Positions 39-45,975 of a stretch of 64,000 nucleotides of DNA are shown here, piece by piece. This DNA is from a virus (Duplodnaviria > Heunggongvirae > Uroviricota > Caudoviricetes). The notes beneath the pieces are model-generated. The model was not told the origin of the DNA, did not search any database, and saw only the letters and a list, made by a program, of their open reading frames with translations. The stretch is from positions 479 to 64,478 of IMG/VR virus record IMGVR_UViG_3300034061_003277, one strand, 5' to 3'. A program made the translations under genes and the position numbers. Numbering within the stretch: the stretch's first letter is position 1; each line of letters begins with the position of its first letter.

Positions 39-848
39 ATGAAAGCGATTGTAATTGGAGGTGGTTCTATAGGTAAAAGACACTCAACAAACTTAAATAA
101 ATTTGGAGTTAAAACTCGTATAGTTGATATTGATGAGATAGACAATATAGATAATATATTAAGTGAAGGGTTTGATATGGGTTTAGTTTGCACTCCAAAC
201 ATAAATCATATAGAACATTGCTTAAAATTAGCTAATCATAATATACCTATATTCTGTGAAAAACCATTTTACACATCAAATGAAGGATTAGATGAACTAT
301 TAAAAATAGTAAAAGAAAAAAATCTAATCACAATGGTTGGTTGTAATCTAAGATTTACTCCTGAAGTGCAACAAATTGATCCTGAAAGTAAATATATTAA
401 TGTTTATTTTGGGTATGATCTTAAAAAATGGAGACCTATGACTGACCATTTAAAATCATATAGTGCCAACAAACATTTAGGAGGAGGAATATTATTAGAT
501 GCTATACATGAGTTAGACTATCTTTACTTTAAGTTTGGAGAAATAGAAGACATTTCTTATCTTCATAGAAAACTTACTAACATAACAAATGATACAGAAG
601 ATTTAACTACAGGTACTATTAAATTTAAAAATGGTACTGTAGCTGATTTTCATTTAAATTATCTATCTGAAGATTATTTAAGATATTATGATGTGTTGAA
701 AGATAATAGATTAAGAAGAACAGAATTTGTTTTAGATAATAGTATGTACATTAATGAAATATTTTATTTTGTAGATAATGTTGTGAATAAAACTCAATGT
801 ATGAATAATTTTGAAGAAGCAAGTAAGTTATTAAAACACTTAATATGA
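39..848 (+). CDS. Gfo/Idh/MocA-family NAD(P)-binding oxidoreductase (sugar-nucleotide pathway)
   Basis: N-terminal Rossmann motif IVIGGGSIGKRH; first gene of a coupled operon (ATGA overlap at 845) with a NeuB-like synthase. Confidence 0.55.
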   Translation: MKAIVIGGGSIGKRHSTNLNKFGVKTRIVDIDEIDNIDNILSEGFDMGLVCTPNINHIEHCLKLANHNIPIFCEKPFYTSNEGLDELLKIVKEKNLITMVGCNLRFTPEVQQIDPESKYINVYFGYDLKKWRPMTDHLKSYSANKHLGGGILLDAIHELDYLYFKFGEIEDISYLHRKLTNITNDTEDLTTGTIKFKNGTVADFHLNYLSEDYLRYYDVLKDNRLRRTEFVLDNSMYINEIFYFVDNVVNKTQCMNNFEEASKLLKHLI

Positions 849-4142: not shown

Positions 4143-5314
4143 CATTTTGCATTCCTAGCAAATCAAACCTAAGATACCTTAAAACATGTATCCCATCAAT
4201 TAGAAAAAATTCTTATCGTGATGATCATGATATAATTATTTTTGTTGACTCTGATGAAGATGGAACAGTTAAATGGTTAGAACAAGTTAAAGACAAATAT
4301 AACTTAAGCTATTTTGTTAATCCTAATTTAGGTGAGAGTTTGTTTGGTATAGGTAAAGCATATGATTTTTGTATAGAGCACTCTAAAACGGATATTTTTA
4401 TAATATTCCATGCTGATATGATGTTAGGTAAAAACGCCGATATAAACGCTTATAACCACTTAAAATCTAAGACAGTAGTATGTTCTACAAGAGTAGAACC
4501 ACCTATACATCCTAATAATGGTGAGAAAATAATATCAGATTTTGGGATGTGGCCTGAAGAATTTAAGGAAGAAGAATTTAATTCATATGTTGAGTCACAA
4601 TTAGACGAAACTAAAACTACAAATGGTATTTTTGCCCCATGGATGATGTATAAGAAAGAATACCTTGAAATAGGAGGTCATGACCCAATCTTAAAATCAT
4701 GCCGTGAGGACTCAGACATATTCAATAGAATGAAATTAGCTGAATTTGAGTTTATTCAACCTTGGAACTCATTAGTATATCATTTAACAGGTAGAGGAGC
4801 AGGCAGTTTTGATGGTGATACTGAGCGTCATTTAGCTTGGCAGAAAGAAATGAATAACTCAACTAAAGAATTTATTCGCAAGTGGGGTTCAAATGTTAGA
4901 CATACTGACTTAATGGAACCTATTGTGCCGCCAAAGTATAACATTGCGTTTGTAGTTGACAACTGTAATTTACAATTACTTGAAATTCTAGAGCCAATGT
5001 GTGATAGAATATATGTAGATGAAGTATTCCAAATTGGTCGATCACAAGATTATATAGAAGCATTTCAAGAATCTACATCATTTGATCTACAGAAGAGAGT
5101 ATTAACTAAACAATATAATGACCCTGAGGGTGAAAATGATATTATTGTACATTTTGATGCTAATAAATTCACTCAACAATCATTTTATTTCCTACACCAA
5201 ATACCAGATATAATTAAAGGTAGTGGTGAGGTTGGATTATTTGAGTTAGATATATTTACAATCAATATTATAAACCTTCAAGAGTACCAAAACCAACTTA
5301 TAAAAATATCTTAA
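4130..5314 (+). CDS. GT-A-fold (GT2-like) glycosyltransferase
   Basis: N-terminal 'ITFCIPSKSNLRYLKTCIPSI...IIIFVDSDEDGT' with a DxD-like DSDED. Confidence 0.45.
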   Translation: MEKITFCIPSKSNLRYLKTCIPSIRKNSYRDDHDIIIFVDSDEDGTVKWLEQVKDKYNLSYFVNPNLGESLFGIGKAYDFCIEHSKTDIFIIFHADMMLGKNADINAYNHLKSKTVVCSTRVEPPIHPNNGEKIISDFGMWPEEFKEEEFNSYVESQLDETKTTNGIFAPWMMYKKEYLEIGGHDPILKSCREDSDIFNRMKLAEFEFIQPWNSLVYHLTGRGAGSFDGDTERHLAWQKEMNNSTKEFIRKWGSNVRHTDLMEPIVPPKYNIAFVVDNCNLQLLEILEPMCDRIYVDEVFQIGRSQDYIEAFQESTSFDLQKRVLTKQYNDPEGENDIIVHFDANKFTQQSFYFLHQIPDIIKGSGEVGLFELDIFTINIINLQEYQNQLIKIS

Positions 5315-30579: not shown

Positions 30580-31383
30580 ATGTTAGAAATCGACAATTCA
30601 TCATTTCTCAGCAAAGCTGAGATTAAAGAACGTGCCTCATCAGTATTTACTACTGTAAAAGGTGAAGCAACAAGTGAAAAATACACTCATATTCCAACTG
30701 ACCAAGTCATAGATGACATGGAAAAGTTAGGATGGGGAGTAGTAGACGCTAAACAAGTACGCGCTCGTAAGGGTGTAGGTTATCAAAAACATTTAGTTGT
30801 GTTTCGCAATCCGAATGTAGCTATTAATGGTGAGGATGGTGATGATGTGTTTCCACAAATTCTATTAACAAATTCACATGATGGTAAAAACGCATTTACT
30901 TTCACAGCTGGGTTGTTTAGAATGGTATGTGAGAATGGTTTAGTAATATCAACTCAAGAGTTTGAGAATCTAAAGATTCGCCACATGGGTTATAGTTTTA
31001 CTGAGTTACAAGCGACAATTACATCAATGGTAGAAAAATTACCACTAACTGTTGACAGTATGAACAAGCTAAAAGCAACTAAACTAAATCAAGAACAAAA
31101 AATTGATTTTGCTAAACGAGCACTTGAGACAAGATTTAGTAAAGAGGAGGTAGCTAACGTAACTATTAATATTGATGAGTTATTAGAACCAACACGTAAA
31201 GAAGATAGTGGTGATGATATTTGGAGCGTGTTTAATGTTATTCAAGAAAAGTTAATTCATGGCATGTTTGAGTACAAAACAGGAACCAAAGCGAGAAAAG
31301 CTCGCAAAATTAAGAACTTCAATCAGGACTTAAAAGTGAATGAGAAGTTATTTGAACTGGCGCTTGAATATGTAGCCGCATAA
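30580..31383 (+). CDS. DUF932-like phage/plasmid protein
   Basis: LLTNSHDGKNAFTFTAGLFRMVCENGLV resembles the DUF932 core; from memory, unverified. Confidence 0.35.
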   Translation: MLEIDNSSFLSKAEIKERASSVFTTVKGEATSEKYTHIPTDQVIDDMEKLGWGVVDAKQVRARKGVGYQKHLVVFRNPNVAINGEDGDDVFPQILLTNSHDGKNAFTFTAGLFRMVCENGLVISTQEFENLKIRHMGYSFTELQATITSMVEKLPLTVDSMNKLKATKLNQEQKIDFAKRALETRFSKEEVANVTINIDELLEPTRKEDSGDDIWSVFNVIQEKLIHGMFEYKTGTKARKARKIKNFNQDLKVNEKLFELALEYVAA

Positions 31384-43458: not shown

Positions 43459-43716
43459 ATGGCCAACAAAAAAGGTAGTTATGAATTAGTAGAAAGTGTA
43501 ATGGTAGATTGTTATGGTGGTGGTTTAGGTGAGTATAATGAGAAGGTGATGAATGATTTTTATAGTAGTTTTGAGAAGGGTGTTGATGTGAGTAAAAATA
43601 AGTTTTTTGAGTTTTGTAATAAGTATATAGATGATGTAAGTGAGAGATATTATATTAGATTAAATTGGGAGTTTATTATTAGTGGTGGTGATGAGAGTGT
43701 TTATGAGGAATGTTAA
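43459..43716 (+). CDS. hypothetical protein
   Basis: 85 aa. Confidence 0.4.
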   Translation: MANKKGSYELVESVMVDCYGGGLGEYNEKVMNDFYSSFEKGVDVSKNKFFEFCNKYIDDVSERYYIRLNWEFIISGGDESVYEEC

Positions 43717-43721
43717 ATTAA

Positions 43722-43745
43722 GGGGGCAAATGCCCCCACTTTTTA
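43722..43745 (+). terminator. rho-independent terminator
   Basis: gggggc-aaat-gccccc then acTTTTTaT. Confidence 0.7.
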
Positions 43746-43806
43746 TCCTAGACTAGAAAATGAGTTATTATATCTTTATAGTATAAATTAAAATAATATA
43801 AATAGT

Positions 43807-44260: not shown

Positions 44261-44333
44261 TAACCATAACTTTCACACCTAGGTTATTAAGTAGTATATA
44301 ATATCTTTATAGTATAAATTAAAATAATAAAAA

Positions 44334-44606: not shown

Positions 44607-44924
44607 ATGGAACAAACAAACACACCACAACTAGGCCGACCAGTTAATCCAAACAGCCGCCGCCAACAAGAATTAGCCGCTAAAGCGGAGCGCAGAGCAT
44701 TAGGGTTAGTTAAACGAGGACGCCCAGTAGTTGAAGGTAGCAAACGCCAATTAGAATTGGAAGCCAAAATGGAGCGAATGATTAGTAATGGTGGGGTGGT
44801 TAGACGCGGCCGACCAGTTAATGGTGAGAGTAAGCGCCAACAACTATTAAACGCCAGAGCGGAATTGGCCGCTCTGGGTATTGTAAGAACACCGGGACGA
44901 CCAAAAGTGGTTATTGCGGAGTAA
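44607..44924 (+). CDS. AT-hook-like repeat DNA-binding protein
   Basis: Three repeats of (G)RPV(N/V)..SKRQ..L.AKAER (LGRPVNPNSRRQQELAAKAERR / RGRPVVEGSKRQLELEAKMERM / RGRPVNGESKRQQLLNARAEL) plus terminal PGRPK; locally GC-rich. Confidence 0.5.
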   Translation: MEQTNTPQLGRPVNPNSRRQQELAAKAERRALGLVKRGRPVVEGSKRQLELEAKMERMISNGGVVRRGRPVNGESKRQQLLNARAELAALGIVRTPGRPKVVIAE

Positions 44925-45462
44925 TTTAATTATTTTATTAAGGGGGGGTGGGCGCCGCAATGGCGCCTATCTCTGTCCCGTACCGCGTACGTACGCGTAT
45001 ACCACAACCCATATATATACCACGCGCGCTGCTATCCATACGCGGGTGCGGTGATACCGCTACCGGGATGGACGTATTAAGATATAAAGTATAATTATAG
45101 TGGGTAGGGTTTGTATATACTTATATACTTTGAGCCCACACCACATACCATACCACATCATCACATCTCTTAACCATTACATCACCCTATATTAACTGCT
45201 GGGGTGTAAATTTTGGTATACGCCTTTTACACATGATTTCAAAGAACTAAAAGTAACTAGTAATAAAAATTTTACCCAGTAGCAAAAATATATACGTATC
45301 TACCACCCGTTGTGTTAACATGCTACATACTACGTTCTGTTTATCCTCTCTCTCTTTTCCCGTATTCCAAATATAACATGTATATGAGAACAGGCCAAGC
45401 TTAAAACAAAAAAAGTTTTTAAATTTGGCTCCACATAACCCCTTTATATATTCAGCAGTAAT

Positions 45463-45801
45463 ATGCATTTACTAATAGGAATACTCTTTGGTATGTTAGC
45501 CCAGGCGCTAACGTTCCTACAGTTACAGGGCCAAATGAGATACACGTGGTTTAAAAACAACTACTGGTTAGTAGTCCTAATGGGAATACCTATATCAATG
45601 TTATTTATGTACTCAGTTAAAAACATGATAACCTTTTTTAACGGCCAGATGTGGCCATCGCGCCTCATAGGTTTTTCCATTGGTACAATAGTGTTTATCA
45701 TTATGTCGTATGCTCTTTTCCGCGAGCCGGTTACCACTAAAACGTTTATATGCTTGGTATTAAGCGTAGTAATACTGTGTATTCAATTATTCATGAAGTG
45801 A
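45463..45801 (+). CDS. membrane protein (3 TM)
   Basis: 112 aa, hydrophobic. Confidence 0.45.
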   Translation: MHLLIGILFGMLAQALTFLQLQGQMRYTWFKNNYWLVVLMGIPISMLFMYSVKNMITFFNGQMWPSRLIGFSIGTIVFIIMSYALFREPVTTKTFICLVLSVVILCIQLFMK

Positions 45802-45975
45802 TACGCTAATTGATTTAAAGCGTTTTATACACCCTATAGTATCAAAAGTATATACGGATATCTGGATGAAGGTGCGAAGTGTGAGGGTGTGTGCATGGCC
45901 TAGTAGAGAGCCTTTTTTTGCCCTAAGTTTGTAAACTGTAAATTTAGATGTTATCTTTACAATAAAATAAAAGTT

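Follow-up and report, generated by a model that had tools for sequence, protein, structure and literature searches.

The non-coding island at positions 44925-45462 of a 64,000-nucleotide (nt) stretch of a caudoviricete genome (positions 479 to 64,478 of IMG/VR record IMGVR_UViG_3300034061_003277; the whole stretch is referred to as the window) is, as judged by sequence comparison, one copy of an unannotated family of non-coding elements carried by ~100 uncultured marine and freshwater phages. We favor, at slightly better than even odds (a probability of roughly 0.55), the interpretation that the island represents a clade-wide transcription-unit boundary module organized around a conserved structured RNA. 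That the RNA would be transcribed is suggested by strand-asymmetric base pairing, by covariation, by the fixed orientation of the element behind co-directional genes, and by the terminator that follows it. The individual motifs of the island were not beyond chance when taken singly, and the fold of 44925-45100 was not unusual (z -0.89); its significance stems instead from conservation far beyond chance. The element belongs to no described RNA family, and is a real, conserved feature.

Members of the family were defined by a two-part signature consisting of box A, CACGCGCG(Y)TNNTATCCATA, and the sequence TATATA(Y)NNATAT (within box 1) located 90-93 nt past the start of box A. The window carries this signature at 45021-45040 and 45114-45126, with a spacing of 93 nt. 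The box query CACGCGCGNTNNTATCCATA retrieved 21 IMG/VR stretches, while the box-plus-TATATA pattern retrieved 98 metagenome stretches of marine (TARA and others) and lake origin. After duplicates and five false matches were taken out, 99 distinct copies were retained, all of which (99/99) displayed the 90-93 nt spacing, with 61 having exactly 91 nt. The constancy of box A is in part a consequence of having retrieved the copies with a box A pattern, and diverged versions that the pattern missed exist (e.g., locus L187, in which box A differs). A core profile built from the 99 other copies found a single match in the window, at 45016-45130 (E 6e-17), and a covariance model built from the marine copies only matched 45002-45140 of the + strand (37.6 bits, E 5.6e-5).

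We likewise searched for the element in other collections. Neither blastn nor tblastn searches of 50,697 deposited phage genomes, using the island, the elements of two relatives, a 35-nt consensus and a neighboring protein as queries, returned anything real. Three matches in 185,579 prokaryotic species genomes were devoid of every other feature of the element and were judged to be due to chance. No family among the 4227 models of Rfam 15 was reached by either the island or the element of locus L071, at both gathering thresholds and permissive E-values, and a scan of the window together with ten related loci against the same models identified only tRNAs plus one transfer-messenger RNA (tmRNA; in locus L066). 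A literature search by sequence strings and by topic produced no relevant description of the element. The loop of box A was also compared with the nick sites of rolling-circle replicons and circular Rep-encoding single-stranded (CRESS) DNA viruses, and with the complement of the 16S 530 loop; the resemblance was partial and limited to subsets of copies. A conserved small open reading frame (ORF), for which ATGGCAACC... in 'domain 2' of the marine copies and the open frames running through box A were candidates, was ruled out by frame-shifting indels.

The sequence-only reading that drew attention to the island had placed it at a boundary, where a series of class-II promoters stops and late/structural-type genes begin. 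This placement was correct, since 22 copies of the promoter-like motif ATCTTTATAGTATAAATTAAAA (ACA/TAA) are present on the + strand between 8.8 and 44.3 kb (8870-44327) and none beyond. The last copy occupies 44303-44327, and the island is devoid of copies at up to 3 mismatches. Comparison of gene content indicates that all carriers are one related phage clade, and that the position of the element is syntenic, between a variable array of small genes and the conserved protease/baseplate block. In loci L079 and L064, the block 3' of the element is colinear with 47-59 kb of the window at 26-75% amino-acid identity, and includes protease-like, 250-amino acid (aa) HD/TraI_2-like, 240-290-aa, ~420-aa and 626-aa baseplate wedge proteins. 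Relocation of a DUF932 gene is the sole break in this otherwise colinear order; the gene (30580-31383 in the window) precedes the window's element by 14 kb, whereas in L079, L064 and L146 it is found 1.4-2.7 kb downstream. Genes upstream of the element are on its strand in 51 of the 54 loci for which this could be decided. Downstream genes are co-directional in the window-like and lake groups, while in most marine copies a short opposite-strand cassette intervenes (33 loci) before the + strand block continues.

Homologs of the membrane protein encoded directly downstream of the island are present in 60 loci, and DNA-level similarity in the island extends only to the closest of these, L014 (91% protein identity). 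Locus L063, found by way of the protein encoded directly upstream (56% identity), carries that gene and, behind it, ~380 nt free of genes in which the elements are arranged as in the window, namely a hairpin with a different stem, (GTAC)3, ACCACGCGCG..TATCCATA, TTGTATATACTTATATA and a CA-rich tract; the gene downstream of its element differs from that of the window.

Read 5' to 3' on the + strand, the element consists of an optional GC-rich hairpin after the upstream stop codon, a GTAC-rich block that occupies the equivalent place in all groups, box A, a purine-rich linker, helix P4 and box 1. The CACGC arm of box A pairs with GCGUG ~17 nt further on to form helix P3, which in the marine group is 99.6% paired and free of variation. 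The 3' arm of P4 is followed immediately by YCGR and box 1, (G)TATATAC-NN-ATAT. Pairing of P4 is 89% across the 49 marine copies, and three of its pairs are G·U in 17, 31 and 4 cells. Read from the other strand these would be C·A, and the hairpins retain G·U but not A·C pairs. Likewise, in the 5' hairpins of the window, of L063 and of the marine copies, U·G or G·U pairs are confined to the + strand.

Family-wide covariation was counted over 53 representatives of <90% identity that were aligned to the model. All 8 pairs of P4 changed on both sides, in 33 cells compared to 11.2 +/- 2.5 after shuffling (0/500 shuffles reached 33), a count that is an upper bound because the alignment was fitted to the structure. 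The covariation score of P4 was 0.151, compared to no more than 0.056 for slid partners. The + strand folded more stably than the - strand in 39 of the 53 representatives (Wilcoxon p 1.5e-4, measured with mononucleotide shuffles), a difference to which base composition contributes. With dinucleotide shuffles, the fold of window positions 44938-45222 had z-scores of -2.09 on the + strand and -0.41 on the - strand. The comparison of the window with L014 points in the same direction. The core from box A to box 1 is 95.8% identical, with 78 nt (44997-45074) free of any difference, and in the palindrome of the GTAC-rich block 44985 G>A is matched by 44996 C>T (CACGTACGTACGTG), such that pairing is kept. 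A second compensatory pair, 45187 C>T with 45202 G>A, is found in CACCT/AGGTG, and 45110 T>C converts a U·G pair to C:G.

Besides the fitted alignment, several findings weigh against a structured RNA. In the unfitted marine alignment, 3 pairs of P4 were changed on both sides in 9 cells compared to 2.8 +/- 1.4 expected, a modest signal, and RNAalifold applied to plain MAFFT alignments returned two short helices only. The middle part of the window's element does not align to P4, and the covariance model treats it as an insertion. In a subset of the marine copies it is the - strand that folds better. Box A and box 1 are conserved in sequence without covariation, which would also suit a protein binding to DNA. 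A further marine segment, 'domain 2' (described below), contains a covarying helix, ACGCCAAAA/TTTTGGCGT, as well as ACACCAAA/TTTGGTGT and ACCCCC/GGGGGT, whose mismatches are A·C on the + strand and G·U on the - strand. Not all parts of the element need be read from the same strand, and domain 2 may instead form the 3' end of the inverted cassette, with transcription from the opposite strand. Finally, transcription of the element, the ends of its RNA and a stability sufficient for that RNA to accumulate are inferred from sequence. An unguided family-wide search for helices found only trivial AT pairings, since the helices lie in different registers in the different groups. A closing helix between an upstream TATATA and box 1 was predicted and was rejected, as its upstream arm varies while box 1 is constant.

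The conservation of the boxes as sequence makes a DNA-level operator/promoter cluster the main rival, albeit an unlikely one. Under this alternative, box A, box 1, box 2 (a third conserved motif, downstream of box 1) and the GTAC palindromes would be operators or promoter elements that a phage or host protein (for example, the multi-AT-hook product of the upstream gene) binds to switch promoters of the downstream block, and the hairpins would be incidental. It would account for the lack of covariation in all three boxes, for the fixed 90-93 bp spacing of box A and box 1, and for the sequence shared by box 1 and box 2 (YCGA-N4-6-TATATAC-NN-ATAT), the latter of which overlaps a sigma-70-like promoter. 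The presence of a third such box past the next gene, and of an adjacent AT-hook gene in 18 of the 99 loci, would fit as well. However, it leaves unexplained the tolerance of G·U pairs on one strand, the compensatory changes in hairpins of unrelated sequence, and the intrinsic terminator located directly after box 1. Moreover, most carriers have no AT-hook gene in the flanks examined, and AT-hooks bind the minor groove of AT-rich DNA, not GC-rich boxes.

Signals consistent with transcription termination follow the structured part in two forms. A strict intrinsic terminator with its T-run on the + strand was present within 100 nt past box 1 in 33 of the 49 marine copies and in 0 of the 45 others. 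In the non-marine copies, the 80 nt past box 1 are instead 32.5% C and 7.8% G. Given that the intrinsic terminator and the C-rich tract are mutually exclusive at the same place, we read the CA-rich block of the window as a Rho utilization (rut)-type terminator. An intrinsic-terminator scan of 44925-45462 returned none, while it identified a canonical one at 43722-43747. The G-free tract of the window is the second-longest G-free run in its 64 kb, and has the composition of a rut site (at least ~60-80 nt, unstructured, C-rich and G-poor). Compared to L014 the tract is 66% identical with an 8-nt indel, and its CA-richness is kept. Rut sites have no defining sequence, and it is base composition that suggests a dependence on Rho here, a further point on the unfavorable side for the RNA interpretation.

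Promoters from which transcription could restart lie beyond these signals. At least 60 of 90 relatives have a box 2, which lies 74-363 nt past box 1 (median 135 nt). In about half of them it forms a sigma-70-like promoter comprising an A-tract, TTGGCN, 17 nt that include TCGA and TATATAC, and TATATT, often 15-35 nt ahead of a + strand ATG. The copy of box 2 in the window is decayed, and a sigma-70-like promoter stands directly ahead of the membrane gene instead; its -10 hexamer is conserved in L014, and TTGGCT/TTGGAT-17 nt-TATATT also precedes the downstream gene in L063, L067, L068 and L080. We considered a Bacteroidota-type promoter (-33 TTTG / -7 TAnnTTTG) for box 2. This type was not enriched in the window (6 matches compared to 3.6 expected, none of them in the island) and the -35/-10 spacing provides a better fit, so this reading was dropped. 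A third box is found in the 174-nt spacer after the membrane gene, with a weak profile match at the equivalent place in L014, and the 112-aa membrane gene is thus bracketed by box copies.

The arrangement of invariant loops and variable stems, followed by a terminator or C-rich tract ahead of co-directional genes in the window-type and lake-type copies, raises the question of whether the element is a cis-acting attenuator, either a riboswitch or a protein-dependent type, in which the RNA senses a ligand or phage protein to decide between stop and read-through. A basic repeat protein encoded just upstream in some lineages could be such a protein. We consider this improbable. In the marine copies the downstream genes lie on the opposite strand (33 loci), such that read-through would not express them, and independent restart promoters follow the element. 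In addition, no alternative terminator/antiterminator pairing was identified, and there was no match to an Rfam riboswitch or leader.

On the favored interpretation of a boundary module organized around a structured RNA, events would proceed as follows. Transcripts from the repeated early-type promoters, the last of which serves the AT-hook-like gene, would enter the element on the + strand. The ~200 nt of 44942-45130 would then fold into hairpin 1, the GTAC palindrome, the stem-loop of box A, the variable hairpin and box 1. In the marine relatives, transcription would stop at the intrinsic terminator; in the window and in freshwater-type copies it would probably be stopped by Rho acting on the G-free 45135-45197, aided by the weak hairpin-plus-U at 45183-45214. 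Expression of the downstream genes would be restarted from sigma-70-like promoters, by way of box 2 in the relatives and of 45425-45452 in the window. As to the role of the RNA, our best guess is that it is a stable RNA derived from the 3' end that acts in trans or controls the decision between stop and read-through. The multi-AT-hook protein whose gene lies just upstream may bind it in freshwater lineages. A more specific proposal, to which we give somewhat less than an even chance, is that the core of ~44942-45214 represents a new class of structured non-coding RNA (ncRNA), with boxes and position conserved clade-wide, made as the 3' end of an early transcript and sometimes accompanied by a multi-AT-hook protein. 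If true, the ncRNA and AT-hook protein would be a pair that might, for example, regulate the early-to-late switch or act as a decoy for a host factor.

The association of the element with the AT-hook-like gene is real, and is frequent in freshwater lineages. Of the 99 loci, 18 have the gene upstream of the element and on its strand, and each of these 18 belongs to the window-like and lake groups; in the marine and several lake groups it was not found within the flanks examined. In the more diverged L185 and L187-189, the gene is likewise the final one in a series of small genes, and the long gap behind it contains a diverged element. The 105-aa protein of the window has 570 homologs, of which 0 have a Pfam domain or an informative name; the label 'DNA polymerase II large subunit' attached to one of them at its source does not fit a repeat protein of ~140 aa. 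The four repeats of the window protein read LGRPVNPNSxRQ, KRGRPVVEGSKxQ, RGRPVNxxSKRQ and GRPK. All four GRP motifs and one serine are invariant in the alignment of homologs, and 'AT-hook-like' is therefore a fair label; short GRP repeats of this kind are typical of disordered AT-hooks. A second GRP-repeat paralog was observed 1-3 kb upstream of the first in L063, L067, L113 and L159, and that of L063 is not followed by a long non-coding stretch.

The sequence-only reading had also proposed the island as a candidate origin, packaging or terminus region. None of these was supported by analysis of skew, DnaA boxes, iterons or contig ends. Cumulative GC skew, the check that had been suggested, rises through 45 kb and turns only at ~53-54 kb, although this test is weak in a phage whose genes are all co-oriented. 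Sites with up to 1 mismatch to the DnaA box TTATCCACA were absent from 44925-45462 and numbered 26 in the window compared to 27.6 expected, and the island contains no iterons, only short repeats in two copies. Separately, we observed that cumulative skew peaks at ~53-54 kb and then falls, although the long ORFs remain on the + strand, and that this is the sole inflection in the window.

The form of origin that merits consideration is a transcription-primed one, located where the early region ends and working in the manner of T4 oriF/oriG or the T7 primary origin. DNA synthesis would be primed by a transcript that a promoter drives through the element, with the AT-rich boxes as the site of unwinding. 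A location after early genes has precedent in the T7 and T4 origins. The element is single-copy in each genome segment examined, has a fixed orientation relative to transcription, places AT-rich 16-mers next to GC-rich hairpins, and lies alongside a gene of DNA-binding type. Nevertheless, such an origin is distinctly improbable given the lack of skew inflection at 45 kb, DnaA boxes and iterons, and the G-poor transcript over the CA tract would be unfavorable for a persistent R-loop. Furthermore, near relatives of the window phage have no element within 5 kb of the same junction, which would be odd for an essential origin. A packaging signal or physical genome end (pac, cos or the boundary of a terminal repeat) is very improbable. 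GC-rich palindromes in an ORF-free stretch ahead of head-morphogenesis genes are in its favor, whereas copies on whole contigs showed no excess near contig ends (19 within 400 nt compared to 17.4 expected) and the side of the cut was inconsistent. In addition, no terminase gene is adjacent in the window, and the element is internal to long contigs.

Several known systems resemble the element in part. Promoter-early stem-loop (PeSL) cassettes were reportedly described in the hyperplastic regions of T4-type phages by Arbiol, Comeau, Krisch and co-workers in 2010. The array of the window is PeSL-like in that 22 promoter-like repeats, some of them right after intrinsic terminators, flank small ORFs of unknown function in a variable region, and the island is so in combining stem-loops with promoters at the end of this array. 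However, the island is single-copy and ~500 nt long, its conserved core bears no similarity to the motif repeated in the array, and its conservation extends across phages that share only 26-75% identity in their proteins. The island is thus a distinct element at the end of the array, not another PeSL-like cassette. The 63-nt G-free, 38% C tract directly after a structured region recalls Rho-dependent terminators such as lambda tR1, as does the interchangeability of the C-rich tract with an intrinsic terminator among relatives, but nothing in known rut sites corresponds to the conserved domain upstream of the tract.

A conserved box and hairpins near a gene for a small arginine-rich protein, at a boundary between temporal gene classes, are also found in lambda nut/N and HK022 put. 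In contrast to these, the element shows no sequence or structural match, lies at the end rather than the start of early units, has behind it both independent promoters and terminators that are apparently in use, and in most copies has no such protein gene nearby. The marine structured domain resembles small RNAs (sRNAs) that derive from 3' untranslated regions or end in terminators, as it lies at the 3' end of a co-directional array and ends with an intrinsic terminator; compared to base-pairing sRNAs it is longer (~200-280 nt) and more conserved in sequence, and has no known seed or target. Conservation in aquatic metagenomes and phages, and a GC-rich composition in an AT-rich background, are shared with the GOLLD, ROOL, HEARO and lake/marine motifs of Rfam, and one locus (L066) adjoins tRNA and tmRNA genes; the element is much smaller than GOLLD or ROOL, and 0/4227 Rfam 15 models matched. 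Finally, T4 oriF/oriG and the T7 primary origin likewise have promoter-like boxes and AT-rich segments just past early genes, and the element differs from them in having no skew change or initiator-binding repeats, in its G-poor transcript, and in being missing at the junction in near relatives. In its mode of action, the element would come closest to a terminator region, Rho-dependent or intrinsic, with a conserved 3' RNA domain ahead of it.

If the RNA interpretation is true, ocean and lake phage populations would contain an abundant unannotated ncRNA family, whose boxes are better conserved than the surrounding proteins and whose position is fixed at the early/late junction. How large AT-rich phages end early transcription and start the next program would thereby become a testable question, with a natural comparison at hand, as lineages differ in whether the element is followed by an intrinsic terminator or by a rut-like tract. 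In addition, the signature of box A and box 1 is a simple means of recognizing this phage clade and the point at which its hypervariable region ends, and the 570-member family of small multi-AT-hook proteins is flagged as a likely partner.

The features of the window discussed above are collected in the table.

Table. Features in and around the island, in window coordinates.
Feature	Position	Strand	Remark
Last, variant promoter-like motif ATCTTTATATTAATAAATTAAAATAA	44561-44598	+	Precedes the AT-hook-like gene
AT-hook-like gene, 105-aa basic protein	44607-44924	+	Four GRP repeats
Hairpin 1	44942-44979	+	GGGGGGGTGGGCGCC-GCAAT-GGCGCC at 44942-44967; stem extends to 44979
GTAC-rich block with 14-bp palindrome CGCGTACGTACGCG	44984-44997	+	Pairing kept in L014
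Box A CACGCGCGCTGCTATCCATA and 3' arm of stem P3	45021-45048 (box A 45021-45040)	+	CACGCG with CGCG..TG
Local hairpin GCGGU-GAU-ACCGC	45048-45060	+	Within the variable middle part
Box 1 GTATATACTTATATAC	45113-45128	+	Spacing of 93 nt from the start of box A; in the window, forms the tip of a predicted hairpin
CA-rich G-free tract, candidate rut-like site	45135-45197	+	63 nt without G, ~38% C
Weak terminator-like hairpin CACCC (45183-45187)/GGGUG (45202-45206), then UAAAUUUU	45183-45214	+	Minimum free energy (MFE) and centroid folds
Box 2 AAAATATATACGTATCTAC, decayed copy	45285-45303	+	Direct-repeat family D2
Sigma-70-like promoter TTGGCT-16 nt-TATATT	45425-45452	+	Directly ahead of the membrane gene
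Membrane protein gene, 112 aa	45463-45801	+	First gene 3' of the element
Third box AAAAGTATATACGGATATCTGG	45840-45865 (TATATAC-NN-ATAT at 45849-45861)	+	174-nt spacer after the membrane gene

The description of the island itself given by the sequence-only reading held up well. The non-coding stretch of 538 nt extends from the stop of the upstream ORF (44607-44924) to the start of the downstream one, begins directly 3' of the AT-hook-like gene as had been claimed, and is without a conserved ORF. The ORFs found there mechanically are short, and the longest (45247-45468, minus strand) is interrupted by a 1-nt indel in L014. A pseudogene of a neighbor was excluded as well, since tblastn with 12 upstream-neighbor proteins of related loci gave no match in 44925-45462. 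The island was described as GC-rich, and its G+C content is indeed 50-60% at 44900-45050 compared to ~31% across the window; that of the upstream gene is likewise high (45-53%). Its richness in palindromes was upheld by hairpin 1 and the perfect 14-bp palindrome, and every quoted string was found where it had been placed, including CACGCGCGCTG, which starts at 45021, GCGGGTGCGGTGATACCGC at 45042-45060, and the CA-rich block at 45134-45170.

The core of hairpin 1, GGCGCC-GCAAT-GGCGCC (44951-44967; loop GCAAU), lies within a longer G-rich stem and was seen in both MFE and centroid folds. Additional G·U pairs, which on the other strand would be A·C, extend the hairpin on the + strand only; it is followed by UAUCUCUG, with no U-run. 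The hairpin of L014 differs in the loop alone (GCAAT to ATAGT), while L063 has a hairpin with another stem sequence, GGTGGGA/TCCCACC, at the equivalent place. A search of IMG/VR with the exact hairpin-1 string returned no match, as the loop differs even in the closest relative. The local hairpin at 45048-45060 occupies the place of helix P4 in other groups, and the model does not align the two. The marine domain 2 (CCATTTAACGCCAAA...AAAATGGCAACC...TTTTGGCGTCGAGG) lies between the terminator and box 2, at +115 to +215 from box A, as in L071 (about 4395-4480) and L077, and is not present in the window. Its arms interleave with a possible CCATTT/AAATGG pairing, which would give a pseudoknot-like topology.

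Additional observations concern the neighboring genes. Several copies of ATCTTTATAGTATAAATTAAAA are located directly 3' of intrinsic terminators (e.g., about 43720-43747), and the copies precede small ORFs as well as the DUF932 gene (30545). The coding strand of the + strand ORF at 43459-43716 is without cytosine over ~240 nt (43470-43712; GC skew 1.0), and its 85-aa product therefore uses C-free codons only; the canonical intrinsic terminator at about 43720-43747 is directly 3' of this ORF. Further downstream of the island, the window encodes thioesterase-fold, prohead-protease-like and baseplate-wedge-like proteins. In most of the other loci with the membrane gene, a glutamine-synthetase-like ORF of ~370 aa (~345-375 aa) ends 18 nt before that gene. 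This ORF (MKIKLEYVWLDGY..., ~1.1 kb) sits exactly at the slot held by the AT-hook gene and the island in the window, and was found in L015, L021, L024-L028, L030-L033, L036-L055 and L060. The slot is variable, and the ORF is a candidate auxiliary metabolic gene. The L066 element is flanked by a tRNA gene on one side and by a pair of tRNA and tmRNA genes on the other, all on the same strand, with the tmRNA at 198-608 (- strand, 113 bits) and the tRNAs at 633-704 and 2074-2159, within 1 kb on either side.

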